From NCBI GenBank assembly GCA_051294905.1, contig CM119372.1:8248001-8312000 (forward strand): a stretch of 64,000 nt of DNA, in the 5' to 3' direction. The position numbers and the translations under genes are program-made. Below, one piece after another: positions 3,670-62,873 of this stretch. Every line of letters starts with the position of its first letter. Position 1 is the stretch's first letter. The notes below the pieces were generated by a model that made no database searches, was not told where the DNA came from, and saw nothing but the letters and a program-made list of their open reading frames with translations. The stretch is from Botryllus schlosseri (Eukaryota).

Positions 3670-6600
3670 ATGTACCTGGTTGCTCCGTTTTGCCTTCTTG
3701 TCGTTTTCAGCTTCGACGTTGAAGGTAAATATTGTAAACTTTAGGATTTACTACACGGAAATTCGGTTTCAGAGTAAAAGTACCCTATAAGTCCACGAGT
3801 TTTTGAAGAAAACATTGTCGTAAACACAAGCAGGCACTCAAATCACGGTGTGTTGGGCTGAATTGTCTCAACAAAGCGGGTCCCTTCAAACTGGACCACG
3901 GGTGCGGACTGGGCAAACTGGTGTACATGGGTGATTCGATTCTCAATCGAGTATTAGGCTTCGAGTCGAGTCCAGTATTCGAGTATTAGTCATTATGACT
4001 CCGTGACAGTGTGAATGAAGAAAATCTTTTCAAAAGTTTGGCGTTGTGACGCGACAATGTCGTCTGGAAAAACAATGCCACAGCTCAGGAGCAAGTGAGC
4101 ATCGCCGCAAACCACAACACACAATTCGAGGCTGAATTTTTTGTGTCTGTTTTCTAGGGCCACGGGCAGAGTAGAATTTACATTTTCGTAATCAGTACTG
4201 ATGAAGCTTTCGATTGATATCTGTTTTATCGAATTTCGCGCCCGGCCAGTCTAAATATTGCTGTAAATGCCCATGATAGTCAAATGCAGAAAATGACGCA
4301 GTGAGGACGAATTGCCAAAAAGGAGGACATTTAGGCGTCATCGGAGGACATTTTCAATTTCCTGAAAAAGGAGGACAAATCCTCCTAGAGGTGGACGTAT
4401 GGTAACCAATGTCTCCTCCAATTTTTGACGCGTCTGCGCACACCAGTGTTGGGATCAAGTCACTACCTTCGAGTCACGAGTCATTTCGAGTCATTGCACA
4501 TTTTGACTCGAGTCAAGTCAAGTCAATCGATTTTCTAAAGTGACTCGAGTCAAGTCAAGTCACCCAATTCTCGGAGGTGACTCGAGTCAAGTCGAGTCAA
4601 GTCAAGTCAAGTCAAGTCAAGTCAAGTCAAGTCAAGTCCAGTCACGAGTCAAGTCATAATTCAAGTCAAGTTGCCTTTTTGAAGTATGAGACATGATTAC
4701 GTCATTGCATTTTGCTAGCTGGCTGAAATATAGATTGAGTGGTCATTGATTCTGAACCGATGGACGAATACAGAGATAAACATACACGCAAGAAGGCCCT
4801 GTATCGCTCACATATAGCCTACGTGGCATAGCCCCGTTTTATAGGTACTAGCCAAAATAGAGAATAGATAATAGAAAATCGAATTGATATAGATGCAATA
4901 CATTACCCATTTACAAATTGATATGATACAATTCGAGCCTGCGCCAATGGTTGAGGAATAGATAAACTATATTCGAATTCAATTTCAATAAAACAGGAGG
5001 TTTCGTTAGGGTAAGTACAGAGAACAGAAATAGACATCTTGCTATTAAATTATTTTACTATAATTTATGGCAGCATAAGCTGTAAGCTTCGATCACTTCG
5101 TTTGCGGAAAATTTATTTGTGAGAGAGCAATGGAGGCTCAGTAAAACGCAGGATCATTGAATGATTGGTCGCTCTCACGGCGTTTCACACCAGCGTTTCG
5201 CGAACAATCCGACCATATGCTAGATACAGTGATTTTTACCGACACCGATTACTTCATGACTTGAAATTGACTCGTGAATTTTGCTCCGAGTCACGAGTCA
5301 ATCCACATTTCTGATACGCCGAGTCAAGTCAAGTCAAGTCATTCTAGCAAGGTGACTCGAGTCAAGTCAAGTCATTCGAAAAAAGTGAATCGAGTCTGAC
5401 TCGAGTCAAGTCATGACTCGAGTCATCCCAACACTGGTGCACACTCACCAACTCACTGCGCAGACCCTTGGACAACAGTGCGTAACGACTAAATTAAAGG
5501 TCCTCATTTCGGATTTTTTATGCAGAACTTAGATTTTCTGTGCGCAGAAACCGTCTGAGCACTGCGCATTTGCGCACGTGCGCATCTTAGAGGGGGCATT
5601 GATGGTAACCCTACTATTAAAGGACATTATGAAGTGCCTGATTTGAGGACGTCTAATGCTTTGGTCTGGCTTGAACCGGTTGTTGTACTGTTGTGCTCTG
5701 CAGTCGTTGCAATGGATCCGTCGTGTGTGTTAAGTTTGATCCAGTGGAACCTATGGCGAGTGTAGCCATCCACTAACAGTTAGACGGGTCAACGACCGAA
5801 TGGCTACACATGTAATATCTCTGTATTGACGATGGATGGTAGCAGAGACTTGGTGTCACGTATATATCCGGGCATTTTTTCACAAATGAAGGTTCTACAA
5901 TTTAGATCAGGCGTGTCAAACTCAATAAGGGTCGCGGACAAGATTGAAACCTTATGATCTCCCGCGGGCTGCACAGTCAAATGAAGCCAAATGGTACCGG
6001 TTATCCCCCAAATCCAGACCTTTGTGCTTCACTGGATTTATTCATTATGAAGCCTATGCATAATATATATTATTACGGATGATTTGGGGCTCTAGCCTCT
6101 GTATTCTGGCAACATATGTATTCGGAAACAACGGAATTGGCGACAATTACGATTTGAAACCGATTGCATATACAATACATCTATAAACCGCTAAAATAGT
6201 GGCTTTAACCTGCTAGTCACAACAATATAAATTGATATCTTTCTATGCACCCGTTGTTTTAGTCGCGTCGCGCGAATTGGCCGAGCGTGTATTTTGTGAG
6301 GAAGACCAGAGTTTAACTGTAAACGCGGTCACCAAAATTTGCCGCGAGATGGTTACAACGTGGCATACGAACAATGAACACGTTAAACATTTCCTGTCTT
6401 GAGGAATTATTTACATGAAAGTTGATATTATTAAGAATCTCAACTTTTCTTATAAATGTGATAGAATTGAATAGTATGAAAACATATTGAAATGAGCCCG
6501 AAAATTTTCGACTGACACTCGTCAGGGTAATCGTCAGCAATTAGTAGAGAATTGGGTTCATTTCAATATGAATATACTATTCAATTGCATATTGAAGTTC

Positions 6601-9600
6601 TGCACCTGCAAGAAGCTCTTCAAAAATGATAGATAATACAAGTATTTTTCCATTTATTCAGAACTGGATAAAATCGTCTGTTGGGCAGTATACGTTTGAC
6701 ACCCCCGATTTAGATGATTAAATTGAAGTCAATTTTGATTGAAATGTTTCGTAGAACCTAAATGCTGTTGAAATTCCACAGGCTGTCACAATGCTCAACA
6801 CACACAGCCGACTGCGGCTTTAACGTTCTCCGGACGAAAGCGAAGAGAGGTAAGTTGTCCCGACTGCGCAGAAGATGTGGACGAGGACTTGTCTTCATTT
6901 TTCACTGATTGCATGATGTCAAAACGTCCGGGAGAGTTTACATCGTGGAGAAGCGTAGTCGATTTCGTTATCAGAGATTCAAAGTGGTTTCAAGCAACTG
7001 ATGAAGAGTTTTGCAGGTGAGGCTCGAGGATATGTGGGTATCTGGTTTAAGTCCATTCTAAACCGACGGGTATAAATTTGAAAATACGTAATGTCAAAAC
7101 ACGAAGATGCTATAGCGGGACTAACCAAATTTAATGACTGATTCAGCTTCGATAACGGAATTATTAGGGCTACTTTCTTCACTGGAAATGGAAGCACATT
7201 ATTTTAACCTGACACGTGCATTTGTTTTAGCGGGCGTAAAGACAGCGCCAAATGCTGGCAAAGGCGCACAGAGTACATGTTGAATTTCCAATCTTCTCTG
7301 ATATCCCCCACAAAGGATTGTATTGCGGAGTACGACAGACACGTGAAGGACTCATGTGAGGATTTTGCTATCTCTATATGAACAGACGACATAGATGCAC
7401 GGAAACAAAAGCGCTTATGTAATTCTAATAATAATCCAACTCAGTGGTTCTTAAACTGGGGTCCATGTGTCCGGTGTTGACCGTTTATAGTCATCAGGTC
7501 GCTGATCTAACTAAACCTAAACAGGGAATAGAGCAATTGCGGATCGGAACCAGGCACGTGAATTTCGATAATACATGATGAATATCCTAAAAATTATTCG
7601 AATAATAAGTCTTACAATCTTTCGCAGCCTTGTAGAAAGCCCGATTCACTATATGTTTATCTCGGTAATATATGCATTCGACATTGTTTATCTATGATCT
7701 TCGACAAAATTGATTGCAACATATCCCTGCCTTAACACGTTAGTAATAATCAATAATTATTATAGCAATAATATACTTGGGGAATGTTTGCAGTTGCAAA
7801 AAAAAACATTTTTTTTATTCAAGAAACAATAATGACGCGTCAAGCGAGTCGAATATCAAGAGAATACATTGCCTCGAGCTACGGGTAATTATAAAGTCTA
7901 ATAGATAAATACATAGTACACACCTTTCGAAGACCAATACCCATACAACAATCTCAAGGACTCACGGGAATACTGTATTATTCGGTATATTATTCGGTAC
8001 TATTATATACTTGGCGAAAAAGAAGTTTCGCTACGATTAATTGAAACCAGAGGTTGCAATTATGCGTTCCTTGTCAATATTTAATTATTTCAAGTTCAGG
8101 CACGAGTAGGCCTAATGGAAAATAACAAGACTATACCTTATATATATGCGAACAAAATTCATGGAAGGCGGTGGCAACGAAAATTCAAGCCAAATCGTAA
8201 GTCCACATGACTACCGAAATTTTTCAAGGAATCATATGGAAATCCTTGAATATGCCCGAACTGCTCTTTCTATAATTTACCATTAATTAGACATTAAGCT
8301 TATTACACAACTTTTGGGTTAGTTCGGAAATTTATGAGTATTTTCAATTTTCTTTTCGTCCGGTTACTATGACAATATTATTCGATAAAGAGATAATACA
8401 ACACTACTTTTTACTTGAAAAAATAAAAAGTGCATAAACGAAGCACTTTCGCTTCAGAACACGCTAAATATAGAAGCTGATCACATCACCATACTTGAGC
8501 AATGAGCACGCAGTGCAAGTATAGGCAAAGTATACTGTACTTGCGTGTTCTGATAAAGCATGGGCGTATACATCTGGTATTTCGACAGATGGTGCCGAAT
8601 TCGAGCAGTATTACATCAAGAACTTCGACATGTACGACTACGAAATTTCTATTGGAGAATTTATGCGACCGAAACGCAACCTAACGGATTCCGACGACGG
8701 AGTGAATAAATTTGCTGGCGCAGTTGTGGATGTAGCGAACCAAATCGCACAGAATTGCCACTTATACGACGTACTTCTGTACGGCGAATGCCTAGTGTCT
8801 AAATTTGAAGATATATTGGATGCATTTCTCATCACTCACCCATCCCTTACATATTACAACCAGACTGTGAACGACAAGTTCGTGAAAGAACACTACTCAA
8901 GTTGCAGGTAACTTTTCGATTTATAACAGAGAAAAAAATGACATTAGCGTCTACGGAATGCGAGATGGAGACAAATGAGAGATAAACGATTTCATTTCGA
9001 CGATATCACATTACAAATATATGCCACATAAGTACGCTATCCTGGACAATAAAATGACCGCAATAATGGTTATCTCCGAGAAGACAATTTTGACGGAATC
9101 TTTTGATTTGTAAACGTTGTAAAAATGAACTGTATGCATAGTTATCGTATAGGTACATTTTCTATCTATTTGAAAAATGGATCTCAAAATTTGATAAAAT
9201 AGTCATAATAAGCTACTTTGGTTCCAACACGACGATTTCCGCCGCCCATTTCCGTATACCGAACTCCGACAAAACCAAAAAGCAGCCATATACCAAACTG
9301 CACATTTGCGACCCGAAAACTATCAGAATCCAAATATACTTTCCCATTTTGACACCTTGCAAATAACTAGTGACATTTACATGGGATACGCACGTCCAAG
9401 CAACAAATTGTGCTTACCAAGAAATTATTCAGGTCAATGCGTTCTTATGGTTTTACAGGATATCTGTAGCAGAAGTGAATGGGAAGACGATATACACGGA
9501 GCACTGCCCGCTTATCGCCACAGCGGAAGAGAATCCTACCAATTCATTCCGCCATGCGGATGTGGCACCCAGAAACTCCTGCCTCATATCTGATTACCTG

Positions 9601-11142
9601 CAGATTGTTAAACCAACTTCGCCCGTCTATTCGATGTACTCAAGTTGCGCTTCCGAGTCCAGAGAACGGTTGGGCTTTACTACCCAGGAACCAGCTATAA
9701 CTCGCGCCATCGTAACGGAAAAGCCTGAACCTTTAGAGATCAGGAAGTTCGGGAAGAAACGTAAGTATTAACCAGGGCTTTGGAGCAGCGGTAAATTTGA
9801 AACTGCCCCAGCTCCAGCTTCGGCGCTCTCTATTATCATAAATTATCTGCGGCTCCGCATTCGAGATCTATCTAATGCAGGGGCGGGCAACATACGGCCA
9901 GCGGGCCGGATCCGGCCCGCGAAGGGATTTTGTCCGGCCCGCGGACAGTTTTCCGTCTTACATGATAATGTGGCCCGCAGCCCCAGTCTGCCAAGATTCC
10001 CATTACTTGCTTACTACGTCAAATTTTAGTGACTCTATGTTAGTATATGCGTGTATCCAAAGCGTGCGAGAGTATGGAGCTTACGCGTAAGTTCGTCGAA
10101 GCGAGAAGCAGACTTGCATTATCGGCATTTACGATGTACTCAGCCCTAATGTCGTTTGTGGTAATCATGGTGTTTGTCGACTATAATGATCATTTACACC
10201 AGGCTGATATATCTTATTTTTAATCCGTAACCGCCGACTTGTAGCACGGCACACTTCTAGGCTTTCGTAAGACACCGCTTATACCAGGCGTCGCCAACTC
10301 AAGACGGGTCGCGGGCCACTTTTCAAATTTCGTGGAGTACGCGTGCCGCAAGAATTCAACATCGATATTAATTACGCCACACAGTTGAACAACGACGCTA
10401 TCTCGTCACCTGATATCCTGGTAAATTTGAGGTACCTGGCTCATCGAACGCCTTGAAATCTTAATTAAGAATTGCACCGTGTGTTCATTGATAAGCTGGA
10501 AGCACCATTGACGGCGCCTGTGTGACGATGCTATTCTCAAATCCACATTGTCTTCGTCATTATCGGCGAGAAATGGCTTTGAAGTGACATTGCTGTCGTT
10601 GAAGTTCATTCATTAAATAAGATTTATTCCTTGTATACGTGGCGTGGATAAATGGGCGAATAATGTATCGATTCAGCAATCCGACCCGCCAAGTACTTAA
10701 AATTCCTATATCCGGCCCGCTAACTGGAGAAGTTGCCAGCCCCTGATCTAATGGTTCAGTCAGTAATCGGTAACAACGGTTGCAGCCGTCCCAGAGAACC
10801 GTCAATTTGTGTGGTTATTCGAAGTCATGTGACGTGATAATTACTGTGTGTCGTCTGCTGATGAAATTACCGCCGCACGAGAATGCACTTAAAGGGGCAC
10901 TGCGCTCTAAAAATGATGTGGTCTCAAATTGAAGGGCAGCAAAACGAGAATTTTTTTCTGGCCGCAGCCATTTCCTTCAGAACGCCACCGTAATGGAGCT
11001 GCAATTTATTGAAATTTCCACAGGACCTTCACGCTCCAGGTGTCGCGGCTGCGCGTCATTCCTTAACCCGTTACATGCACGATGTCTTCACCGTCGCACT
11101 TGCTCGACGCGATTAGGCAGTCACGCAGAGAACGAACTTTAG
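3670..11142 (+). CDS. Gene N1: uncharacterised secreted, furin-processed cysteine-rich precursor (short model about 384 aa; long model with CysD exons about 536 aa)
   Basis: Phase-compatible GT-AG exons: 3670-3724 (signal peptide MYLVAPFCLLVVFSFDVEG), 6782-7016 (CHNAQ...SGRKRR...FFTDCMMSK...SWRSVVDFVIRDSKW...EEFC), 7231-7355 (KCWQRRTEYML...KDCIAEY), 8589-8907 (...MRPKR...YGECLVSK...HPSL...DKFVKEHYSSCR), 9459-9760 (...EHCPL...SCLISDY...SSCASES...). Candidate terminal exon 11024-11142 (RPSRSRCRGCASFLNPLHARCLHRRTCSTRLGSHAENEL*). Exons 1-5 match N2 in sequence and intron phase; the terminal exon is less certain. Confidence 0.85.
4407..5601. mobile_element. hAT-type MITE (CAATG...CATTG), middle layer of a nested insertion
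   Basis: Perfect 8-bp TSD ATGGTAAC; uninterrupted sibling at 55333-55449. Confidence 0.85.
4444..5436. mobile_element. hAT-type MITE with CAGTGTTGGGAT TIRs and subterminal (GTCAA)n/GACTCGAGTC arrays
   Basis: TIRs CAGTGTTGGGAT/ATCCCAACACTG; TSD GCGCACAC/GTGCACAC; inverted second copy at 59674-62444. Confidence 0.92.
5908..6707. mobile_element. hAT-type MITE (CAGGCGTGTCAAAC...GTTTGACACCCCCG)
   Basis: TIRs and perfect TSD ATTTAGAT (5900-5907, 6708-6715). Confidence 0.88.
9878..10745. mobile_element. hAT (Charlie/Buster-like) MITE
   Basis: CAGGGGCGGGCAA...TTGCCAGCCCCTG; perfect TSD ATCTAATG; GGCCCGC subterminal motifs; contains a SINE 3' fragment (about 10195-10280). Confidence 0.88.
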
Positions 11143-12931
11143 ATAGTTGTTGACATATTTCCTTCATAACATCGGCTGATGTCCGTCCGTCGATCAAGTT
11201 TACTGGAATGTAGAAGGTTCCCCTTCACACGAATCGATTGATCTATGAATTAGCGCCACTGAGAATCTGGTGTTGCATCAAAATTTGACAACCTAATTCA
11301 ACGCCGTGCACTGTACTGTACACGTACACAATGCAACGTGTTAGGAACGAAGTAAACTACATGCGCGACAATATTAAAAAAATACGAGTGTATGAAGCAG
11401 ATAAGAATGAATACAGAAAACTTTGGATTACTAACCGGAAATTGCGCACCGAATCTCTAATTGCAATCTTATATCCAACACCAGGGGGTTCGGATATTGC
11501 ACTGACTAGCTTACTTCGCGAGAATCGTGACAATTATATTCGGACTATAGAATGCCATTCTGGGCTGCTTTGATGCATTTCCCTATTTACGTTCGCAAAT
11601 ATTTACTGGAGTAAACGATCATGCGCTGGCATGAATCTCCATTCGTGGACAACTAGGCATACACAATAACACACTGTCCAATTTTGAGCTATCACAAAAC
11701 TATTACCAAAGTACACGTGTATTTGCTGGTATATGTTTCTCGGTGTGCGACGTACGCGCCCCCAAATCGACATGTGAAGCATCATGTCATGTTTTTATTC
11801 TCTTGCGTCGCTTGTATAAATTATTCGTCTGATTACTAATTAGTTGAATTACTCAGCTAACATTATCATCAGCACATGTAACCGTTACAATGGAATCAAT
11901 CACTGCATTATCTATGAGTAGAGTGATCGTCAGCTCATAATCGGGCTGCTATGTGTCGAAGATTCGTTTCATGCTTCTAATCAAGCAGCTTTTAAACAAA
12001 ATTACTCCGCAAAACCTGAGCCCACTGCCTGTATTTCAACTTGCATTACAATATTACTTCTCAGGACTTGTTGTTCACAACTTTAGTTTATCCATTTGGA
12101 AGCAACGAATCAAGCAAGCAATCTTTTTGCAGAAAAAAACAGCTCATCGATATACGAAACGCGTTTTTTAATACGCTGTATTCACAAAAATGGATGAGTT
12201 ATGGCTGTCACATTTCAAATCCTATGTTATGACTGGTGCAAAAGCATTCATAGTTTTATTGCCATTTGTATCTTAATGACTATGACCTATGTCAACATAG
12301 CTTCTTTGTTTTGACCAAAATTAAAAGATGTTCTCGAGAGAGACTGCTTGGAATTGACGACGAAATGCGGGTATGCTGATACAATGCAAAATAACCTCGA
12401 TTCGTATTACCACATTAATCATTTTTTCAAAAAGCATAATACTTCCGAAATTTCAAGATGGCTATAACTGACTAACGCTAAATGGATAAGGACTCTACAA
12501 ATAGGGGAACACTTTCAAATACATTCAGTTACCGCAATACATGGGCTATTTCACGCGGTTCTTATGATAATTTGTTAAAGTGATGCGAAGTTATACCCAG
12601 AACTAGTTTATACTTTTCAAAGCCAAAAGTACTTGCCTTTGTAAAACTGCTGAAGGGAAAGTGAAAGTATTCTAAAACATTATTACCCGAGTAAGTAGTG
12701 AAAGTAGCCGGATCCTATTACTTGAATACTGCAAAGCAGTAGAAGTATTTGTAGGATCTTCATTTCAATTGTTATGATGTATAGATATATAGATATATAT
12801 AGAAAATACAGCTACAACCAACTAAACATGTTTTAAACAAGGGCCTCGTCTATAAACATGTGTTTTACATTCGCTTCCATTTTCCGAATTTCACTCAAAC
12901 ACAATCTTTGTTGTAACACTAAAGTCATCAT

Positions 12932-14212
12932 TATGGCAAGTTTTTGCAATTTTTGCAACTTTTCTTTTACAGCTTCCGACAGCTTACTAGATACTCAGAA
13001 TATATGTACTATAATGTTTTAAGTAGAGCCCGACCGATATTGAATTTTTGGGCCGATACCGATAAAACCGATATCTAACACCTTCACCGATAAGACCGAT
13101 ATATTCAGCCGATATTAAAAAAAGGTGGAATCTGCCTCAAAAGGTGCATTTTCAAAAATTCAGAGCATTTATTTCAACAGCTTCACAGCATGAAATAAAC
13201 TACAACATGAAATAAACAAGATAGGCTGCATCTGGACACCTTGAAAGTTAAAGATATATGAAATATAGCAATATTCTTAGTCTAGAGGTCAAGAATTATA
13301 GTTTTCTGACTTGATACCATCATGTTGTGACGTCACAAAAATATCCGATATTTTTTGACCTCCAATGGCCGATACCGATAATTCTTTCAAAGTCTAATAT
13401 CGACTCGATATTATCGGCGAACCGATAATCGGTCGGGCTCTAGTTTTAAGGTGTTTGGTGGGATTTTATAGTGCAACTTTTTGCAACTTTTCTCTGTTTT
13501 TCATGCCAACTTTTACTGCAACTTTGATCAATTATTGCGTAAAATATAAAGGATTGACTTAAAACATGCTATAAACTATTTCTAGTATGGTTCTATTCTC
13601 TTTGATTTGCATAACAAAGAGCTATATGATGGGTTAGCTGCATCTCAATGTTATCTATTACACAATGGCTTGCAAGCAAGAAGTGTAACTACCCTTGCCA
13701 AGCACGACCGTGCCCGAACAATATGTAGAGAGTCGCTTTATCAATTCTGTCCTTCAAATTTGAGACAGTATCCCATTTCATGAACGCCCAGGTGAGACCG
13801 CCGAAAATAACATTTTCACTGGGTCACCTTTTTCAGGCTATTGATTCTGTTAAAGTCGCCGATCTAGGGGGGGGGGGTCTGGGGTGTTTCATTTGACTTG
13901 TTTTTTGGGGAGAGGGGGTTATCACAATGCTGTTTGGCGTTTGGTGTGAAAATTTCTCCCGCATTGCCTAATTTTCTTGCTATATGCCGGAAAAAAATTG
14001 TAATTTTTAGCGGTTTCGCCAGACCGTCCATTAAATGGCGAAGTAACAAATTTGACAGGTCTGCAAGAACTAGGTTATACAACGGATCCTTTAGAAGATT
14101 ATCTCACATCCTAATAATTCAACAAAAATTATAAATGCAACTTTTTACTGCAACTTTTGTTAAAATTAAGTGCAAATTTCTCGCGATTTGAGTGCAACAA
14201 AAACTTGCCCTA
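12932..14212. mobile_element. hAT-type MITE (TA[T/G]GGCAAGTTTTTG TIR, TGCAACT subterminal repeats)
   Basis: Perfect TSD GTCATCAT (12924-12931, 14213-14220); hosts the nested element at 13024-13442. Confidence 0.88.
13024..13442. mobile_element. Nested hAT-type MITE (TAGAGCCCGACCGAT TIR, CCGATA repeats)
   Basis: 15-bp TIR; perfect TSD GTTTTAAG (13016-13023, 13443-13450). Confidence 0.92.
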
Positions 14213-14293
14213 GTCATCATTATTAAAATTAGCGAATCTGACTCATCCTACTCTGAGACGTAGGCCTAGTTATTTATAATCCAGAAACCAGTA

Positions 14294-14382
14294 ATGTGCC
14301 ACTCGCAGGGTAATTTCATCATCAGCCATGGCCTACTACTACTAGGCCATGCATCAGCACAACCTTGTTGGCCAATTGTACG
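14294..14382 (+). CDS. Candidate signal-peptide exon of a stand-alone CysD gene
   Basis: MCHSQGNFIISHGLLLLGHASA-QPCWPIV with an A-x-A cleavage pattern. Donor CG|GTTCGA (phase 2) joins in frame to the second acceptor of the tandem CAGGTAG, giving an exon start at 17784. The hydrophobic stretch is short, so support is weak. Confidence 0.3.
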
Positions 14383-14413
14383 GTTCGAAAATAATGATCG
14401 CTATGTATTACGC

Positions 14414-15116
14414 CAGGGCTCGCCAACCGTGGCCCGCGAGAAGGTTTTGAGTGACCCGCGAGGTAATTTCCGAAATTAGTAGTATTATCAAAAATGGATT
14501 GCACAGATTGGGAACTTGCAAGACCAACCAAAAATTTGATTAGTCTGGCCGCAACACTTTAGATGTGATAACTCAAATATCAGTTCCGACGCATTGGCAG
14601 ATCCACGAGCCAGTCACATTTTGGTAGATCTTCGTACACTACAATAAAGCGGAATAATTTGCGATAGCTTTATCAAAAGTAAAAATTTTCTACACGCTTC
14701 GCGCAACATGTTGTCACTCGATTTCTTGCTTTTAATATTGCTACCCCTTTGTGAAAATGAAAGAACGCCTAATGTATCAGATTGAAACTAACTATATTCG
14801 CGATTACGAAACAAAGTGTCATTCAACATTTGCGACCTTGCGTTTGCGCTCGCAGAAAGACCGTCGACTATGAAACCTACGCACAAAAGGATTGACGCAT
14901 GTTGGTCGAAGATTTCGATAGCGATATGTCCAGACGCCGATTACCTAGTCCTTGCAAACTGAGCCCAGCGATATACAGCAGGCCCGCAATATAGTCAAGT
15001 GACAATATTATTGACCTATGAACTTCGAAAAATTTTCACGCCACGCGAGGCTAGTGGCTCGCGTAATAGTTCGTCAATCAAATGTGGCCCTTTGGCTGAA
15101 AAGGTTGGCCGCCCTG
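14414..15116. mobile_element. hAT (Charlie/Buster-like) MITE
   Basis: CAGGGCTCGCCAACC...GGTTGGCCGCCCTG; perfect TSD TATTACGC; same family as 16119-16834 and 57495-59049. Confidence 0.88.
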
Positions 15117-16834: not shown

Positions 16835-17057
16835 ATATAGATAGACACCTTCGATAGTATTCAGAGCCGGAGCCGGAGCTGGAGCCGGAGCAGTGGTAAT
16901 AATGCGGCTCCGGATCTGGAGCCGGAGCTAATGTATGATAGAAGAAAGCACCGGAGCCGGGGCTGGAGCAATGCAAATTTACGGCTGCTCCAAAGCCCTG
17001 TGTGCCAGGACAATGGTCATCGAAAGCTCAAATTGGCGTTCAGAGAGTCAAACCATA

Positions 17058-17708: not shown

Positions 17709-17779
17709 TATCATCAAACGGTCTGATCTACTTGCAACGTTGCTTTTTCCACCTAAGACAAATTCATATCATGACGCAG

Positions 17780-19566
17780 GTAGATTGGGCAGATGCCTAG
17801 CCGGGAGCTACTGGACAAAGTTTTACAACCTGGATTCACCAGAGGGATTGGGGGATCTGGAAACTCTTGAAAGTTTACGAAATGCTTATCGGTTTGCGGA
17901 GATTTGTCAACATCCGGTCGCAGTTCATGCTCGGATAGCCAAGGGTTCCTCGGGAGATCACGTGCTCATGTCATTGGACGATGGGTTGCGCTGCTTCAAC
18001 AATATGCAGTCGGGAAAACTATGCTCGGATTACGAAGTTCGATTCTGCTGCAGAGGTATGTTTTTCTTCGACTAATCTTAACTTCGACCCGCGACCTTCT
18101 TAGAAGCCACGAGAACAATTGGAAATGAAGTTACATGTTATCAAGTGTCTATAGAAAATGAAGGCGGTGATAAAAAATTGTAGTAGGCTAGGCTACTTCG
18201 AAAGTGGGCCATAGACTGCACGCAGTTCAGAAACCGCTGCTTAACGAAAAGTCATGCATGGTTCGGATTCAAAAGCAGATTTATAAATCCCTACTGCGCC
18301 TGGTAGGCCATATATGACTAAGTGCCAAATGGAGTAGTGGGGAGGTATAGAATGTCCATGCAAGCGTATATATAATCTTGCAATAATATGCGACGGCAAG
18401 TGTAAAGAGATTTTACCAGTTTTCAGACCTTGGACATGACTGTGTCAAGTGACGAAAAATCCTAGAATAATTGAGAAATCGCCATGGTTTTATAGCCATA
18501 ATAGTAAAACATCGTGATATATTAATTACATATCGCATTCATCCAGCCCTCGGGATAACTCCGAGAGTCAATGAATAAAACATTACAACCATTCCAGCAA
18601 TGACGTGAGGAAATGTCGTTGAATTGTAAGAAATTATCGCCACGAAAATCCGATGGCGCTGTCGGTACTTAGTCTAGGTGACAGTACGGGGTGCGGAACT
18701 TGATTTTTAAAAATACGAACCCGTCTGACAGCTTGAATTTATGAGGAACAATCAATCCGCCCGAATCCAAAGAAATTTCTTCCAAAAACCCGTGTCCAAT
18801 AAAGACTGAGGCTAGTGTTGGCTGATTTATATTTGTTCGGAACCTTGACATAACAATTTTACACTTCTAGCAGTCCTATCACGAGCTGTCCACTGTCCCA
18901 GTGTCCGTGTTCGTTTTTCGAGCAGATGATTTTTTGTGGTCTGCAATGAAAACTTCTGGTTGCAACTAACCGAAAATGTCCGAAATAAGATTTGAGAAGT
19001 AATCCATATTCAGTATATGATCGGACTGTACAAAGTTTTAAGAAATCCAGTTTGAATCTGAATGATGTCCATCTCTGCTATGCTAGATGAGACTGGAGAC
19101 CTATAATTGAGAACCTACACAGCTTTTACCTTTAACAACCTGGAAAGAGCTCTCTAAAACAATAGGAACATATACTTTCTCCAGAATGACGCCCGAGTCT
19201 GTTGTTAACAATTCAAATGTACAGTACATTATAACACAGTTCAATACCAGTTTTAAATGTTTTACAGAGGTAGTCCCGGAATGTAGCGACGGCTATGCAT
19301 GGACACCGTGGTTAGACAGGGATCGTCCGAAGCGTGGCGAAGACGAATCTCTTGCGAAGCATCTTTCCGATGGCAACGCCTGCGACGAACCGACTAATAT
19401 TCGAGCGCGAATAAGGAACTCGAAGCATTGGTACTGGAAGGGAAACAATGTACTCGACATATCCCCTTCGCACGGATTGACGTGCAAAAGAAGGGACCAG
19501 TTAAAGCTTATCATGTGCAAAAACTATGAAGTCTCATTTTGTTGCCCCGACCTTTCGAATGTTTAA
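17780..19566 (+). CDS. Two exons each encoding a mucin CysD/WxxW domain (as in MUC2/MUC5AC/CILP); distal end of N1 or a separate gene
   Basis: Exon 17780-18055 (CLAGSYWTKFYNLDSPEGLGDLETL...ICQHPVAVHAR...GLRCFNNMQSGKLCSDYEVRFCC) and terminal exon 19268-19566 (CSDGYAWTPWLDRDRP...ACDEPTNIRAR...GLTCKRRDQ...CKNYEVSFCCP...*), joined in phase 1. AATAAA at 19667-19672. Confidence 0.92.
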
Positions 19567-23122: not shown

Positions 23123-23162
23123 GTCTACTCAGACTGCGAGGAAGGGACTATTCCGTGGCGAC

Positions 23163-24907: not shown

Positions 24908-25629
24908 GTGACGACTGCCGACCATTTCAACGACCGAGCATTTCAATATAGAAAATTGTGGCCAATCAGCGACGATCATTGTTGGCTACGGTTGTGTCGC
25001 TACCCATCTTTTTGACACCTCACTTTCCTAGCGGTATGTAGGCCAAAGCTTGACGTATTCATGTGTCTCCACGCAGAAGGAGTTGACCACGAAAATAATG
25101 TGTCTCGTAGGCCCGCACCCGTTAGTGGCACACCGCTACGCTAAAGCATCCCAACGGTCTTCGACGGTGATTTCTAGAGAAACCAGCCGGACAAATCTTG
25201 TCATGAATTCAAACCAATTTGCGTAATAGAAAGGTCGGCATATTTACATGATCAAACCATCTTTTCTGATTGTCTCGCTTATCTTATTAGTTATACGACC
25301 CATCACCGCGACTTTGGATGCGGAAACCCTTCTCCCTGAAAACCGCGCGAAGCGCTAAGAATTACATACTAACTACTAATACATATTAACTGCTCGATCT
25401 GGTGACCAAAAATTCTACCCTTGTGACCCATACTTTATAACGGGGCTTCTTGAAGCATAAGTTGCGATTCGGTTATAAATTTGGGTCGCAACCGCACTAG
25501 AGCGATCTTTTAATATCCATGTAATATTTGTTGAATATCTTGCAACATAATAATATTTCTTCGCGCTTCTCGCGTTCCATCGCGGATAGTTAGTGCATTT
25601 CCAAGGTCACTGTGTTGGGTACTAAAAAG

Positions 25630-26004
25630 CACATTTAAGTGTGACGTCATAGTGGATCGATATTCACAATTGAAAATATAGGGTAAATATAGCTCCGTTT
25701 ACGAAATAGGCTTCCAACCCCTGTCATATACGGACCAAAAATATCTTCAACTATAGGACTACATCGCCTTGCAGTATTTTTACCGTCGGTGGTCATCATC
25801 ATCAGAACATTCGTGTCGTATTGATGATCTATATCTATACGTACTATAGCCGACTATTTCGTGGGTTCCAACCATCCCACAATTATGGCATGATTTTGCA
25901 ACTAAAAAAACACAATTTTTTAACAGGCCTTTGTTTAAAACATTGTTTAAAGCATGTTTCAAACAAAGTGTTTTAAACAACCATTTGTTTTGAATGCAGC
26001 CCTA
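25630..26004. mobile_element. Partial inverted copy of the TAGGGTTGCA MITE family
   Basis: Reverse-complement match to 31112-31560; ends TGAATGCAGCCCTA. Confidence 0.75.
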
Positions 26005-27723
26005 GTTGTCTGCGCGTTCTCCATGTCATGCATGCCCGTAAAAACGAAGCATACTGAGATTAAAATTGCATCCGTTTTGAATTGTGAAGCTTGGGTCACG
26101 AGATTCAAATAAAACTCTGATTTGGGTCGCGGTATAGAAAGTTCAAGAACCACTGCTTAAATAGCCCTAAAACGGAAAAATTAGCATTTACAATAACTTG
26201 CCAATGTGAGTCTACTCTAAAGCATCATAACGATGCCCGATTGTGTTTTTCAGGGAAAGCAAGGTCGGGTAATAAATTCTGCCCTGAAATGTAACCAGCA
26301 GCAGTTTATGTAATACAAAAGCTGGCACATTTTTATGATCAAGCCAAGTTGTTGTAATGACTTTTCCACGTATCTCGCTTATTGGCCGATAGCACCCAAA
26401 ACAGTGTGCTCGGAAATCTAAAAACGATCCAAGGTTTATACGACCTTCTCTTTTCGTTTACAATGTTCTTCACCGTTGTGCAAAGGGCCGCCATGCGATA
26501 AGTGCTAAACCTTTATGTTTAATAAACAACAACAAACGATCCACCGGAAATCGCCCTACGCGCGAAGACTTTTTGTTGAAACTCAAATATTACATACTTG
26601 AAAGATCGTTCTGATGCCATCGCGGTCAAAAATTATACCCTTCGCGACCCATACTTTCAGAACTCCTGATATAAGGTTAACTGAAGACTTAGAGATAATA
26701 CGTATTTATATTAAAACAATTTTAATGTTGATTTGATGATAACGCTCATGCGTCAGAAACATTAACGAGATTTTATATACTGGCCATCCTGAATCAATTC
26801 GTAAAAATAGGTGATGAAAGTAGTCGTGGCGATTCTTAGGATGGGATGGAAATTTGAACATGTGAACAAAGATCGGCTTATAGATATGTTGATTCCGCGT
26901 TTGGTCAAGCATCAGAACACACAATGCTGATACCAGCATGTTACCTTCAAATGTGTATCAGCAAAGGGCTTACTGTATTAAACTTGCCCATTTCACGTTC
27001 TTTTGTGGGGACGACATCAATGTAATTTACTATTGTCTCAAATATTTTAATAATTTGGTGATTTATTTTGCACCTCATAATTTGATAAATTGTGCCTATA
27101 AATAGGATGTTTGGATTTAAATGGTGATGTGAATTGCATCAACAAATTCATTGTATTAATTTCATATTATGACAAGTAATACATTTTGCCTTACCATCGA
27201 CGCCGGGACAGAAGTATCTGTTGATTCTGTATTGATTACAGCATTCATAGCATTCATCTTCAGCTTTCCGCTTTTTGTATTACTTCGGACAACTCATTAT
27301 GAATGAGTTAAGACCGAAGTTCAAAATGATTTGCAACTAACTTCGCATATAGAGGAAGAATCTATCAAAAACACGAACCAATCGGTTTTTCCAAGTGCAA
27401 CTCTGAGACTTCTAATCTAAACTAAACTCATAATTGTGATCTGAACTACCGAAGCGTTTCAAAATGCGTAAGCCCGGAGGTCAAGCTATCGTGCAAACAA
27501 TAAAATCAAAAAGTGCAATATTGAGATCATTACTTACTAAATACCATGATAAAATATATTAAGAAAAAGTTTAATCAATTCGCTCTGGGAATTTGATTCT
27601 TTCATGAAAACGTTTATTAAGATTTGTATCACCTCGGTGCCTTCGCGGGCCGCACAAAATGTTGGGCCGTAGTTTGCCCAACCCTGGCCTACAGACACTC
27701 GATAAAGCCGACGTATACGACGT

Positions 27724-28345
27724 TGCTCTACCAAGTATGCCGGACCCCAATTGTGGAACAGCATCTCGCCGGCTATCCGACAGTCGTCGAGCATGTCCGC
27801 GTTCAAGTCGAAATATACACCAGGCCGATATTCTTCTTATTTTCCGTAACTGCCTCTAGCACGGCCCACCTCTAGGCTTTTTGTAAGACACCGCTGACGC
27901 GGATGAGGTGGCGAGGAGGAGCCTAGGTAAACCCCCAACACTTAGGTGTCGGAATTCGGAAGTCGACCTCGGTCGGACTCGAACCCGCACCCATTGGTGT
28001 TGCAGCCGCGGATTATACCACTGCGCTATCTCGCCACCCGCAGCAATTTCTTCTAAATGAATACTAGCCAGTCTTCAGGATTACCGGATCACGACCTAAC
28101 ATCGACCTCGCCCTCCGCCACATACCACCTCATTTTGTCGCTTGCGCCTTATATTCTCTGCATTACTTTTCATTCAGTGTGCATGCCTCTTATTTACTTC
28201 GCCTAGGCTAAGGTGGGTGTCTGATCTTAAAGGCTACTCCAAGTTGTTTCGACACCTTCCTATCTTTTCATTGTTTCGCAGTCTTGTGATGTTTCTGAAA
28301 CGATGAAAATATTAATAAACCTGATTGATTGATTGATTGATTGAT
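27724..28345 (+). mobile_element. 5'-truncated LINE 3' end (L2/CR1/Crack-like) with (GATT)n tail, interrupted by a SINE
   Basis: Encodes KYAGPQLWNSISPAIRQSSSMSAFKSK, typical of the ORF2 C-terminus; shares its 3' UTR with 34201-34428, 49886-50475 and 58809-58965; tandem GATT tail at 28322-28344. Confidence 0.85.
27815..28039 (-). mobile_element. tRNA-derived SINE
   Basis: Minus strand starts GGGTGGCGAGATAGCGCAGTGGT (A box) and has GGTTCGAGTCC (B box), then a non-tRNA body. Degraded siblings at about 10195-10280 and 57232-57425. Absent at the equivalent LINE position near 50170-50180. Confidence 0.85.
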
Positions 28346-28837
28346 GGGATGGTTGGAACCCTCAAAGTCGTCGGTTTCAATAGCAATAGTACAGAGATTT
28401 TGCCAAAGGAGCTATATTTTCCCTAACTTTTCAGTGGTCAATGTCAATCCCCTATGACATCACAATTGAATATTCGTGACGTCATGGCTTAAAAAAAAGC
28501 AATAAAAAGCATGCTTTAAAGGCCTTGTTTTAAACATGTTTGTTTTAAATTGATTTTTGTTTTAATTGCAACCCTAGTTCCATGGAACACGGGTTAAGAA
28601 CCACTGGCTTAAACAATACCTCTTGTATTTCAGTTAAAAATTACTTCACGTTCATTCGCCGTTGAATACTCAGCTATCATCAACTTCCTTTCGTCTTTTG
28701 TATGAATGCTGTACAGGGATATCACGATAGCTGGAGTTCTAGATATCTCTGATTCGGCATTAAGAACATTGATATAACAGAAGTTCGTGTTTCGAAGGGT
28801 TACGCTACCAATATATCCAGGCGATGGCGCACTCGGC

Positions 28838-28846
28838 AGAGAGAGG

Positions 28847-28896
<50 letters not shown>

Positions 28897-28902
28897 AATA
28901 GA

Positions 28903-28933
<31 letters not shown>

Positions 28934-28955
28934 GGACAGAGAGAGAGAGAGAGAG
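28838..28955. repeat. Imperfect (GA)n microsatellite upstream of N2
   Basis: GA run of about 118 bp with a few interruptions. Confidence 0.95.
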
Positions 28956-29563
28956 TGTGAACCACTACTTTTCAAAGTATTTGAGTGCGAAACTCCCACA
29001 TTATCTCCACATAGTACGTTGTTACATATTTAGGTCAGATATTATATATAATATAACCTTGATACAATATACATTGTGATAAATCATTATATTGATTAGC
29101 ATACACTCAAGTTTTGAGTTACATGGTTACCAGCATGTACATTACTTACAGAACACGCGGTTGTGCTATGTTATAGCTAATATATTATTAGATAATCAGA
29201 GCCATGACGCATTTCTTCACGAACGAATTCAACTGAACTAGTACGATATTTTTTTTAATAACTGATAAGTTACCCCCTTCGTGCAAAATAAGTTTAGATT
29301 ACGTCATGTTTACGAGACTGTATGTTGATTTATGAAGGTTGAAGTAAACGCAAAATGTGACGGGGATCTATATTATTGTGACGCTTCTGAACAGGAATGT
29401 CCCCGTTACAAAACGAGAATCGAGTCTGCTTAATTATACGTGACAGCCTCAAGGTATCGAAAATTGGCAGACGGTAAGCTGGTTCAGCTTCAGATCCAGA
29501 ATTTTATAACTTGTTACTGCAGTATAGGATAAAGTTTCTCAGGTTGTACAAAGACTGCGCTAG

Positions 29564-32500
29564 ATGAATTTACGGATAACTGCATTGCTACTCGCTTTTG
29601 CGATTTCCAGCATTGAAGGTAAAGATATCAAGTATATTACATGGAGTGCTCGCTTTACAGTCAAATATTGCTACAACGGCATATAATTTGAAAAGACACA
29701 TTCTGAAATAGATATCAATAGGAAGATGCCTGATTTTCATACTGGCATATAATTTGAGTGTTTACAATTTTTGTTGCAATGTAATATGTCGAATATGATA
29801 ACGAAATCATTAAATTGTATGCATGGAAAAGTAACTTTTCATCTCCCAAAACATACCGATTACTTTCTTTCGCATTCGAAATTAGGTTTTATATCCAGCA
29901 TTACTGATATCCAGCATTGCCCCATTGTGGTTCTCTCAGTAGTAGGGTTGGGAAAATTTGTAATTCGATTCCGAGCATTCATCTTCGAGTCAAGTACAGA
30001 GTATTCGAGCAACCCCATTTTATGATGTTATAGCAGCAATAATGATTTGAAAATATCAAATACTTACGTTTTTGCGACTGCAGGGAAAATGATGCCTGCA
30101 GTTACACGCCATCCGAAATAATTTCGTATTCCTTATTAAAAACTATTTGGTAAATACCATTGTGAGAGCCGATCATCCCTTGATAGAAATATCGTACCCA
30201 TGAATAATCGTAGCATGTTGTAACTTGTTTCACCGTACCGAGTTAGGACCAAGCGGGGTTTCGAGGCTATGATGGTGGGGATAAAGCATTGGAAGTATAT
30301 TATTTACTGATGCAGTATTACCATTGGATTATTTTCGTTATTGGAATAAAAGGACTCTCACTACTCTACTGGAATCACTAAAATCAATGCTCGACAAAGA
30401 TTCTAGTAATCGAATCGTTGTGCCTGCTGCCCTATATACGCAGTTAACACTATGTCACTTGGAATGTTACACCTCGACATGCATACTTCCGGGATAGTAT
30501 AAGGTAACGATCAATTTACACCAAAATGGGACTCCATCTGACCCAAATATTTCTGCGAGAGGAGGTTGCACCACACTTGGTCCCCCTGAAGGGTATGTCT
30601 ACTTACATATGAGCTGGGATAATTTGTTCATACCTAATAGTAGGAACGATGGACACCATCCATGTCAAGCGAAACTAGCTCAATTATCTATTTAGCACTT
30701 CACCCAATCGTTAGGTGAAAGTATCTCTGGAAACTAGAAAATGAAATCACGAATATTTATCATCTATAACACGAAAATGCGATAACGACTTTCGTATGTG
30801 CTTGTAACCTTTCAGTATCAAAACGGGGCTTTTACTCAGATTCGCCGCCGGCATTTGAAACTCGAACACAGCGAACAGTTAATAACAAGTCTTTACTATA
30901 GAGATGTGCTCAAAATTTATTTGTGCTGTGTAGTTAGTTTTGAAATAACCTACAGTGCGTTCTGCAAGTCGCATTGACGTCATTATGACAGCGATTATAT
31001 GACTTTTAACTCCTCGAAATTTTCAAAAGGTTACAAGTTATGAACTAAATAGCGACTCGAATTTGAAGCTTTGTCGGCACCCACGATCTATCTGAAACGT
31101 AACTTTGCGCGTAGGGTTGCATTTAAAACAAGCATTGTTTTAAAACACTTTGTTTAAAACGTGTTTTATGCAGTGTTTTAAACAAATGCCTTTAAAGATT
31201 TTTTTTCAAACGTCCAATTATGCCATACTTGTGTAAATAGTAAATACCTTCCAAAAACAAACAAAAAATGTATGAGCTTACGGACGATTTGCACCCAATA
31301 AAGTCGACGTATACGATGTGGGTGGTTGGAACCCTCGAAATCGTCGTCGGTTCAACAGTCATATCATGTAGATATAGGTCATTGGTACGGAACGGGTGTT
31401 CTGGTGATGAACACTACCTACCGTAAAAATGCTGCATAACGATTTAGTCCTGGTCAAAGATATTTTTGGTCTGTGTATGACAGTGGTCCAAAGACCCATT
31501 CGTCGAAGGAGTTATATTTACCCTATATTTTTTATTGTAAATGTTAATCCTCTGTGACGCCACAATTATAGATTCGTGACGTCATGGCTAAAAAAAAACA
31601 ATAAAAAACATGTCGTAAACAAGGGTCCTGTTTTAAACATGTTTTTTTTTAAACTGATTTTTGTTTTAAATGCAACCCTATTTGCGCGCAACTTGGCTCC
31701 TACACAACGGAATAAACTATACATTCAGTTAGCGGTGAATTCATGTTTACAGATTGTGATGTAAAACACACCCAAATCGTGACTTCCTAATTCCAAATCC
31801 GAATAACATAATTCACTAATTTCACCAGCGATCTGGGTTAGATGAATAAATTTCCTGTATATATGTCCTCTTTTGTGGATCCGTAAATATTGGGGGGGGG
31901 GGGGGAGAAAATTTGTGTCGAGTTTGAGAAGTGGGCGTTTATTCGAAAAAGGTTGGGAGCCTCTGCTTTAGAGTCTTGGAGCACAAAATCAACTGTTATT
32001 CAAAATAACAAAAGCTTTAAAACATGATTTTCCCACAAAACAAAATGTTCGCAAAAATATTGTAGGCTATTTCCGTGTGACTTCTGCTGTTTCCTTTCAG
32101 AGATTTCACAAATGAGAGCATCGTCGTATTCTTCAGTCGAAACGCAACAGCGTGGTATATTCTATAGTGATACCAATTACTTCATCGATAATGAGCTGAT
32201 AGAGATAGAGATAGAATTTCAAAAGGACAGGGTTTCGATTTTGAACTCCAACCCCCTTCACGACTTACCACCTGAACAGTCACAATTTGACAAACAATCG
32301 AATTTAATTAAGAACCACCGAGTAGAGTAATCAAACTAGTGGAGGATATTGATCGATTTTACAGTCCGCAATTATGCTGCATCTCCCTATCTGCTGAATT
32401 TCTACCGTGTCTTGACACATAGCTATGTATGTAATGGCTATACGCACGGTGATTCAGTTCAGTTTAGTCCTATAATTTCGTACATTACTCTACACTCTAC

Positions 32501-35500
32501 AGCATGTCATCATCGGCAAGCTACATTTCCACCGGATAGGTTTCCAGAAGAAGATTTTCGTCGCCGTCGCAAAAGAGGTCTTGCTGGCGGTGATGATGAC
32601 ATCATATACACTATTTATCCGACAAGTCAACCGACAGCCGTTGACGCAAACCCAGAGCTGAGTAGATTTTTTACCCAATGCATGTTGGAGAAGACTGGCA
32701 GCGTATTCAGATCGTGGAAAAGTGTAATTGACTTTGTATTCCGAGACACTCGATGGTACAGCGCAACAGAGGAACAGTATTGCCCGTAAGTATCGAGCGA
32801 GTTACATATAAGATACTATCGTGTTCTCAAAGGAAGTTGTTGGTGCTAGCTAAAGAAATCATTCATATGTGCCAAATTAAATCTACAGTAATTGAGGAAT
32901 TGCAATTAGTACTGTCGGCACCGGCAATGCGATAATTTGTTACTGACAGGGAAAATAGCGACACTGATCGACTAAGCACAAGCTGCTGGCAAGGACGTAT
33001 CAATTTTCTTCTCAAGGAAAACTCACAACTTAAATCAAAGGCAAAAGAGTGTATCCAAGAATACGCGTGGTCGCAGGAACGCGGTATGACATATTTGTGG
33101 ATATTCATCGAATACATCGCCGACATACGAGAGTATCCGTCCATGTATATTCTATATATTCAGGCTCTTCAACACTGATACGAGGCAAGCGACAAGTTTC
33201 CACCGGCTTTTCGTCAACAAGAGATCCATGTTTAGGAGTCACGATTGTCGCGTACGATAATTGTATTCGTGGCGGCCTCGTGACCCCTGCAAATTTACGC
33301 GAATACCCATCGTTACGGAGTTGGGATGCGGTATCGGTCGATAAGTTTGTGAAAGAACACGTATCAAACTGCAGGTACGCCATAAAACATGCATGCTGCT
33401 AAATGCAACTTGCCGTGAAACCGGGATTGACAGAATTTCATTTCAGGATCACATCTCGTCCCGTTGGTGGCAGGAACAGATACAATGAGGTGTGCCCACT
33501 GGTACCCAGCGGGCTACCGAGCTTTCTGCAACCTACCACGTCGCCCTGCCTGTCTGAAATCTACAATGAAATCGTCAGAACATCGTCGCCATTGTTTCCT
33601 GTTCAGAAATCGTGCACTGAAACGTTATCAGGTTCGTATTCGCCGAGACGCAACGTGAATTGTTTTTTTTTGTACGCTTCTCTGCTCTGCACTGTTGCTA
33701 GGATAGCAAACGTCACTGTTTTTAATGTGTGTCATCACAATGTCGTAAACTTCGTACGAACGAACGGTAATTCTCATCATAATTCTTTTTGTAAGGCATT
33801 ACAAGTTCCAATAAGACGTCGCATAGGTCTTTGGAATTGGACGTTGCATATTTTTGTACTTGATGCATCAGTTAGCTTCAGTAATTATTGTTGCTCATCA
33901 GCCGATGGCTTTCATATTTTCATCCGCTCAAGACACGCGATGCACAATGCGATAGAAAAGACTCAACGCGTGCTGCCGCTTATGAGGACATCTTCTCTAG
34001 ATTGGCAACGGGTTGTAATTTATTCCATTTGTCTGTTATTGAGTACACCGTCATCACTATGCGTTAGTAATCATCACACATTAACTTATTTTGTTTTGTT
34101 CCGTCCGTGACTGCGCTGAGGGCTCTCTCGTATTTTGAATTTCGTATTTTCCTCTGTGTGACGTTACAACTAGAGATACTGATTGTTGATAAACATAGTT
34201 TCAATTCAATCCAATTCAATCAGTTTATTAATATTTTCATCATTTCAAAACATCACAAGACTATGATACAATAAAAAGATAGGAAGGTGTCGAAACAACT
34301 TGGAGTAGCCTTTAAGATCAGACACCCACCTTAGCCTAGACGAGACAAAATGAGGTGGCATGTGGCGGAGGGCGAGGTCGATGTTAGGTCGTGGTCCTTT
34401 AATCCTGAAGGCTGGCTAGTATTCATTTTTTGGAGTGCTGCTTGCATTATAGCTGACGGTAACCCTGATGAGTGTCAGCTCGAAAAGCTTCGGGAATAAT
34501 ATGAATAGATTGTTCTAACAAGACACAATGCAAAGTAAAAAAACAGATCGATCTTGATCATGCTGTCTTTTCATGCTCTTTTTAATTGCGTCCTTTAATA
34601 CGTCCTTCCTCGGGTCATTTTTCTTGGCCTTTTATCCATAATTGCTACTTCATATATATATTATTATATATGATCTGATCATAACCATAAGTGGAATTAA
34701 TTATTACACACGAAAACATGAAATAAATGTCCGTGCTCCACCCCGGACAACCCCATAACCTTATTGTATACATCTCAGTCCAATTCGTTGTGACGACATC
34801 ACAATGGACCGGTGGTATTGATTTCGATTCATACCATTGCGTCTCCACACATGCAGTATTTTACAATATGCAATTGGTGTCTTCGTTGAATTTCTGTATT
34901 TCCGTCCTTATTCTGATAATATTTCACCCTGATAACAGGTAACCAGAAGTGCAGGAATGTGGTTTGCGGAAATCACGCGACCTGCGATGTAACCACCGGG
35001 CTCTGCAAGTGCGACAGCAGCTACGTGGAAAATAGTCTAGGACTTTGCGTCCGTGAGTATCACTAAATCTCTCCGCGAAGTCCGCGACGGACCGCAATAG
35101 ATGCAGACATATATTGTTTTCAGTTGAGAACAAATGCGCACTAGTTTTCTGTGGATCTCCTTTGGAAACTTGTAACCCAAGTAACGGACTTTGCGTGTGC
35201 ATAACCGGATATGAGAGGGACTCGACTGGTGTATGCAGAGGTAAAGGTTTAAATTGTCTAGCCTTTACTAAAACTGTAAAGCACTTCCTAGATTTCCGAA
35301 TTAAATGACTCGAAATATTACTCGCAGGCCGCATTGATAACTTCCCGGTAACATTTACGCCAAAATGAGCAATAGCCGGAAATCGTCCCGATTAAGGACA
35401 GAAAATCCTTATTACGATCATTCCATCTAATATTTTCACTATCTCGAAGCCAGAAGCGTAATACACGAAGTGTGCCAACGATTCTCTAATCTCTATCGTG

Positions 35501-62799: not shown

Positions 62800-62873
62800 G
62801 TAAGTATGGCGTCTCTCAATCAGAATTGCTGCAGCCTTAAAATAGTGAGTGTAAAATGTCGAAATCTCTAGGA

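Follow-up and report, generated by a model that had tools for sequence, protein, structure and literature searches.

Two genes of Botryllus schlosseri, N1 and N2, lie in the window analysed here (64,000 nucleotides of contig CM119372.1, positions 8,248,001 to 8,312,000 of the forward strand) and encode precursors that share a cysteine-rich N-terminal region, the head, in front of different cargo. What is this head, how is it processed and what could it do for such unlike proteins? A sequence-only reading had proposed a family of secreted proproteins whose unrecognised head is cut twice by a furin-type protease into a propeptide and two chains, the second with the cargo.

Gene models of N1 and N2

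Splicing by script reproduced the 55 nt signal-peptide exon of both genes, the identical intron phases after exons 1-5 (1,2,1,2,1) and all seven sequence blocks quoted earlier as common to them (Table 1). Both spliced models have an open reading frame throughout and AG/GT intron ends. N1 encodes 546 aa, comprising a signal peptide, the head and two Mucin2_WxxW/CysD domains, and under a strict filter no additional candidate exon was found between its exons 5 and 6. N2 encodes about 1,330 aa, with the head followed by 22 EGF-like, 2 TSP1 and 2 TIL modules, of which the end of the cargo is predicted. Specifically, its five head exons precede 25 phase 1-1 cargo exons that remain open to 1,298 aa, and a final EGF-like exon adds a predicted stop at 55109-55111. 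N1 ends at 19566 and N2 is predicted to reach 55111; both exceed the span originally quoted.

Concerning transcripts, the N2 joints from exon 1 to 39460 (four in the head and the next eight in the cargo) are present in contigs of three out of four runs (X1, X2 and X7, from three studies, their RNA status being presumed), and the proposed N2 head junctions were thereby borne out. The raw-read run X23, of which about 6% was read, contained three N2 cargo joints and zero head joints. The N1 joints are supported through orthologues rather than reads, namely P0001 (543 aa), which is collinear with N1 (285 identical of 526 aligned residues), and Styela clava XP_039267313 (P0013), which has the same layout as N1. 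Both signal peptides carry small residues at -3/-1 (rule-based) and no transmembrane stretch or membrane anchor was seen in N1 or N2, as expected of secreted proteins; both are predicted to be secreted matrix proteins. Their cysteine counts are odd, with 25 in N1, 25 in P0001 and 169 in N2 (plus 6 in the last exon).

Table 1. Exons and cargo of N1 and N2, in window coordinates
Gene	Feature	Position	Strand	Basis or remark
N1	Exon 1, signal peptide, 55 nt, phase 1	3670..3724	+	V-E-G before Cys fits the -3/-1 rule
N1	Exon 2, Cys1-His2-x3-His6 tip, site 1 RKRR, first half of unit 1	6782..7016	+	
N1	Exon 3, second half of unit 1 (CW...S.L...CI)	7231..7355	+	
N1	Exon 4, acidic linker, site 2 RPKR, first half of unit 2	8559..8907	+	
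N1	Exon 5, second half of unit 2, Thr/Pro/Glu linker	9459..9760	+	
N1	Exon 6, Mucin2_WxxW (CysD-type) domain 1	17780..18055	+	Pfam PF13330, E 4.7e-19
N1	Exon 7, Mucin2_WxxW domain 2, stop	19268..19566	+	PF13330, E 1.5e-16; P0001 ends alike
N2	Exon 1, signal peptide, 55 nt, phase 1	29564..29618	+	Splicing, contig joints
N2	Exon 2, Cys1-His2-His3 tip, site 1 RRKR, first half of unit 1	32503..32785	+	Contig joints
N2	Exon 3, second half of unit 1	32950..33083	+	Contig joints
N2	Exon 4, site 2 RGKR, first half of unit 2	33164..33374	+	Contig joints
N2	Exon 5, second half of unit 2	33447..33631	+	Contig joints
N2	Cargo, 19 six-cysteine EGF-like exons (so named from Cys spacing; the one exon scanned had no Pfam match), all phase 1-1	34939..49858	+	Contigs up to 39460, rest predicted
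N2	Cargo end (predicted): TSP1, EGF-like, TIL, TSP1, TIL, EGF, EGF-like	51340..55111	+	Pfam TSP_1, TIL (two), EGF
N2	Last EGF-like exon with stop (predicted)	55002-55111	+	

The two WxxW domains of N1 score 69.3 and 61.3 bits against a PF13330 cut-off of 22.4 and match the CysD domains of the mucins MUC2 and MUC5AC/B. Excerpted text on MUC2 describes its CysD domain as forming non-covalent dimers that cross-link mucus (PMC3195396). N1 differs from these mucins in having 6 Cys per WxxW domain instead of 10 and an unrelated head; VWD-C8 assemblies and a C-terminal cystine knot gave no match in P0001 or in the scanned exons of N1 and N2, where only TIL was found, in N2.

Distribution of the head among ascidians

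The local alignment score between the N1 and N2 heads is 348, while 500 shuffles gave a mean of 34 (sd 5, max 62). Together with many paralogues and homologues, this upholds the proposal of a real family of secreted precursors. Searching the 495 Mb genome with exon-2 queries and local profiles, which gives lower bounds, led to at least 31 exon-2 loci beginning with Cys, one of them a fragment. They are spread over C2 (which holds the window), C3, C4, C5, C7, C8, C11, C12 and C14, with two broken copies on C12 besides, and the 50 kb upstream of N1 contain three further members. Core identity among 22 paralogues has a median of 30%. HMMER over 1.84 billion representatives returned 49 matches at E<=0.001, of which 48 were kept as the library set.

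A species name was available in the cluster for 24 of the 30 homologues looked up (none in the other 6), and all named homologues are ascidian, from Styela clava, Clavelina lepadiformis, Ciona intestinalis, C. savignyi and Phallusia mammillata. Styela clava LOC120342514 (XP_039267313), the likely N1 orthologue, is uncharacterised, as are the other database proteins named next. The head is also shared by Styela LOC120329695 and LOC120342798, Ciona intestinalis LOC101242749, C. savignyi H2YVX0, the Phallusia 'fibrillin-1-like' protein CAB3245030 and the 'SCO-spondin-like', 'cubilin-like' and 'properdin-like' proteins of Clavelina lepadiformis. Most of these database homologues share the Cys-His tip and the first basic site described below; they are named after their cargo or unnamed, and their head carries no annotation. 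Cargo-based names (cubilin-like, properdin-like, fibrillin-like) thus hide the family. In every member inspected the head is N-terminal, on many unrelated matrix modules: WxxW, TSP1, EGF, CUB, Sushi, TIL, ZP-N and SUEL lectin were detected in the 37 library proteins scanned. An ShKT-like exon was also seen by eye among the cargo (nine kinds of matrix cargo overall).

The head units gave no Pfam match over cut-off in the N1/N2 exons, P0001 and the 37 library proteins scanned, nor did a 40-sequence profile find a PDB sequence match; in this respect the first impression of an unfamiliar head stands. No published description was found in the literature searched. The genes and the family are real, and the head domain is undescribed within the reach of our searches. 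The kind of system is known, namely modular matrix proteins with a furin-matured module at the N-terminus, while this domain and its tip are unnamed. Occurring in 30 or more genes and in all three ascidian orders, the head is a candidate tunicate invention for making tunic, mucus net or glue.

Architecture and basic sites of the head

The earlier picture of a single head cut twice has to be replaced. As judged from its exons, the head consists of a two-exon unit duplicated in tandem, each copy a 1-2-1 exon pair with one basic site in front. Compared with one another, exon 3 pairs with exon 5 (E 6.7e-4) and exon 2 with exon 4 (E 3.4e-4), while the crossed exon controls gave E 0.4 and 0.8. On a 50-row alignment, hhalign matched unit 1 to unit 2 with a probability of 96 and E 4.7e-9, against 0.34 for the reversed control. 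Unit 1 is better conserved (mean column identity 0.43 vs 0.33), with C62, W87 and C96 invariant. In P0049, a lectin match sits inside the unit-2 region.

The best-kept cysteines are eight (20, 62, 96, 105, 127, 216, 254 and 318), and the minimal members P0021, P0033, P0038 and P0040 have exactly these. Over the whole head the count is odd in 14 of 30 and even in 16, and unit 2 contains 2-8. Repeat homology and the single co-loss of C96 and C105, which disappear jointly in one clade of two genes, lead us to infer that every unit is held shut by two nested disulfides, in N1 C62-C127 with C96-C105 and C216-C318 with variable pairs. The units are likely helical. AlphaFold with a thin alignment placed helices, with a pLDDT of 75-90 for two stretches of unit 1, a mean of 52 and a pTM of 0.35; fold searches with this weak model (pLDDT 52) gave no receptor or cytokine fold match.

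The two basic sites lie at equivalent positions as claimed, RKRR 37-40 and RPKR 175-178 in N1, RRKR 40-43 and RGKR 164-167 in N2, and follow the furin/proprotein convertase consensus R-x-[KR]-R as worded in an excerpt of PMC11036296. Site 1 shows the full consensus in 20 of 24 genome paralogues, where linker shuffles predict 1.5, and is dibasic in 23. In the library, it is found in 39 of 46 sequences vs 3.4 expected, a figure biased by the search profile: the set was gathered with an exon-2 profile containing both the Cys-His tip and site 1, which inflates the counts for both. Although the linker from tip to site 1 varies from 9 to 54 residues, the site retains its P1'/P2' pattern, with mostly S/Q/N/A/D at P1' and V/T/A/I/L at P2'. 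Such residues are typical of convertase sites. Site 2, which lies outside the search profile, matches the full consensus in 8 of 14 paralogues of the genome (0.6 expected; 12 dibasic) and in 22 of 42 library sequences (27 dibasic); Styela P0013 keeps it as RFKR and P0001, the closest N1 orthologue, has it reduced to RTER. Site 1 is thus widely kept among relatives and site 2 in about half of them, and double processing is not a general feature of the family. From these motifs, single processing is predicted to be near-general and double processing common, not defining.

The Cys-His tip and its possible roles

Cys opens exon 2 in 24/24 genome paralogues and in 7/7 loci found later. The preceding residue, split by intron 1, is Gly/Ala in all of these (24/24 and 7/7) if exon 1 ends in G, as do all exon-1 candidates found, in typical signal-peptidase contexts; no such candidate was found for L021, L024 and the first L033 gene. 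In the library, Cys occupies the predicted mature position +1 in 46 of 48 sequences, the other two being cut short, and is preceded by Gly, Ala or Ser in 46/46 (G 32, A 13, S 1). His follows at +2 in 38/46 and recurs at +6 in 17/46, against a His frequency of 1.6% elsewhere in the linker. Where His2 is missing in genome paralogues, His4 is usually present (21/24 have a His at one of these two positions), and 6/46 library sequences have no His at 2-7. Prediction thus places the first residue of the mature chain exactly at this near-invariant Cys, which usually occurs as Cys-His and often as Cys-His-x3-His, with signal peptidase probably cutting directly before it. His at 2-7 and site 1 tend to co-occur: 37 of 40 sequences with such a His have the site and 2 of 6 without (Fisher p 0.003, with sequences treated as unrelated). 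Beyond the tip the sequence varies without constraint, and this speaks against a peptide that binds a receptor. Holding Cys exactly at +1, which a plain disulfide would not need, suggests that its free amine matters. The first piece had been read as a propeptide; carrying one of the best-kept motifs, it is predicted to be something other than throw-away or inert.

Our leading interpretation, put forward tentatively and at rather less than even confidence, is that the head is a thiol/metal hook linking chains before the furin cuts. Removal of the signal peptide would expose the Cys-His tip, made reactive by its own free amine and nearby His, and the tip would bond another cysteine or grip a metal ion. 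It could hold heads together during Golgi passage through a disulfide that reaches unit 2 within its own chain or in an adjacent one, perhaps with metal assisting head-to-head linkage. A furin-type protease would then cut behind the tip at site 1, and in about half of the members at site 2, locking or releasing the linked state. The cargo (CysD, EGF, TSP1, CUB, Sushi, TIL, ZP-N, lectin) might afterwards be delivered to tunic, mucus or adhesive, a destination taken from the cargo alone. This hook is suggested by the Cys at +1, the His2/His6 pattern, the association of His with site 1, the furin-like P1'/P2' residues that site 1 retains despite its variable linker and the N-terminal head on diverse cargo, as well as by the odd cysteines of N1, P0001 and N2 with no membrane anchor seen. 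Against it, parity does not single out a free thiol, with the head odd in only 14/30, six sequences have no His at 2-7, site 2 is kept in only 22/42, and the phase-1 intron lying just before the Cys could help to fix its position.

An unlikely but simpler arrangement is an internal tether, in which Cys1 bonds to its own unit 2 (best candidate C254 of N1, at the end of exon 4) and the cut N-peptide stays attached as a short chain, with no inter-chain or metal role. Eight best-kept cysteines make four pairs, the minimal members hold exactly eight and parity is even in 16/30; the tether nevertheless leaves the exact +1 position and the His2/His6 pattern unexplained, L024 and P0018 keep Cys1 with no C254 equivalent, and the totals of N1 and N2 remain odd. 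Distinctly unlikely, in our estimate, is a Hedgehog/Spitz-type anchor, with Cys1 palmitoylated by an HHAT-family enzyme and a surface-tethered precursor released by the furin cut 9-54 residues downstream. Excerpted sources describe a Cys exposed by signal cleavage as the HHAT acceptor (PMC8061759) and Spitz as released by losing its palmitoylated N-peptide (PMC5875562); no other anchor was seen in N1 or N2, and the genome holds four intronless HHAT-like genes vs two Hedgehog genes (starting C-R-P-G and C-R-G-P). All four keep the catalytic His, H379 in the excerpt on HHAT (PMC8693861), and two checked against PDB gave E 2e-41 and 2e-54. HHAT relatives may, however, also remodel GPI anchors (excerpt of bioRxiv 10.64898/2026.08.27.744591), and the extra copies need not serve the head family. 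Pro at +3, present in 12/24 genome paralogues, falls to 2/46 across species. A Lys or Arg among the first seven residues, described as a need of the enzyme's substrates, occurs in only 17/46 of the library (21/24 in the genome, often as the furin site itself; absent in N1, present in N2). The excerpt stating that need also holds an N-terminal Cys alone insufficient and reports 0/87 predicted human N-Cys proteins besides the Hedgehogs as shown substrates (PMC8061759), and even parity in 16/30 suggests that Cys1 is often paired.

The remaining explanations concern the units rather than the tip. Unit 1 could be excised between the sites as a helical, disulfide-bonded, cytokine-like signal of 100-135 residues that the cargo parks in the matrix, which would suit its better conservation, its invariant C62, W87 and C96 and the lack in N1/N2 of a conserved Cys joining its core to unit 2. 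We consider it quite improbable: the absence of site 2 in about half of the members would often leave unit 1 unfreed, the diverse cargo fits a structural role, and the weak model matched no receptor or cytokine fold. Even less probable is that the head is a strongly diverged known fold (saposin-like, GFR-alpha-like or a four-helix cytokine, for example) with its usual function, since the Pfam scans above gave no match over cut-off in the head, the 40-sequence profile had no PDB sequence match and the named homologues are exclusively ascidian, although all-helical units with nested disulfides are a common extracellular design.

Von Willebrand factor has a furin-cut assembly propeptide, and the proposed hook recalls the N-terminal assembly region of this protein and of gel-forming mucins, being a His/Cys N-terminal module removed or opened by furin before modular cargo. 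This is a functional analogy only: the head has no sequence similarity to that region and is about 270 residues long, predicted to be helical and devoid of D domains. The latent TGF-beta prodomain likewise uses a Cys in its N-terminal region for tethering before furin cleavage, and the head resembles it in having a Cys near the N-terminus and a furin-type site; in the head family, matrix modules take the place of the cystine-knot growth factor. With Hedgehog and Spitz, as excerpted, it shares a predicted Cys at +1, a basic cluster close behind and, as predicted, proteolytic removal of the N-peptide, but it has His at +2 and no Hedgehog or Hint domain, and wild-type Shh resists furin in the excerpt of PMC11036296, whereas most head family members carry the full consensus.

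A broader and doubtful proposition is that the ascidian-wide head makes dozens of unrelated matrix proteins clients of one Cys1-His2 chemistry, either N-acylation by the extra HHAT-like enzymes of this genome or a Cys/His metal clamp, undone by furin. If true, these proteins would be the first large class of Hedgehog acyltransferase substrates beyond Hedgehog and fly EGF ligands or, in the clamp version, would reveal a new switch, gated by metal, for the assembly of tunic and mucus. Owing to the conserved tip, the mass of one N-terminal peptide would separate free thiol, disulfide, metal and palmitate.

Surroundings of the two precursor genes

The secreted-precursor gene N2 is directly adjoined downstream by an annexin gene with a weak Pfam Annexin match, and other annexin-like exons were recognized by eye at window positions 57000 and 62650. 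Inspection by eye also led to MITE-like elements at 4444-5431 and 59675-62404, hosted by intron 1 of the paralogous gene N1 and by the annexin gene, respectively; their arms carry AGTCA repeats and their ends are inverted. Concerning the N2 cargo, a two-exon EGF-like pair presents recent tandem duplications within window 37916-44594.

Coordinates of features in the window and elsewhere in the B. schlosseri genome (G000)
Feature	Position	Strand	Remark
Annexin gene	window 56917-62808	+	
EGF-like exons, near-identical set	window 39279/41743/43500		
EGF-like exons, second near-identical set	window 37916/39460/41935/43687		
Patatin-type lipase-like open frame	L040:3530-5282	-	584 codons; GxSxG motif by eye
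Head paralogue without furin-type site 1	L017:6010-6430	-	
HHAT-like gene L045	G000:C2:31.93 Mb		
HHAT-like genes L046-L048	G000:C2:4.66-4.69 Mb		

Head paralogues elsewhere in the genome

About ten paralogues are clustered at G000:C12:8.09-8.25 Mb and C7:0.65 Mb; an extra intron splits exon 3 in several of them, and two are broken copies (L054, with a frameshift, and C12:8219205, with stops). The L017 paralogue bears an RSKR site, followed by an exon-5-like unit end and then a WxxW exon. The patatin-type lipase-like frame is located downstream of the upstream paralogue cluster.

HHAT-like, other acyltransferase-like and Hedgehog genes

The four HHAT-like genes are intronless, encode 536-589 aa and all keep the MBOAT His. 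L045 and L046 are near copies of each other, with H-R-P after this conserved residue and not H-G-G/F. Additionally, LPCAT3-like (L043), DGAT1-like (L044) and porcupine-like (L049) genes each consist of a single long open frame. Two Hedgehog genes, L071 and L072, are located on G000:C6; after maturation their products are predicted to begin with C-R-P-G and C-R-G-P, as against C-G-P-G.
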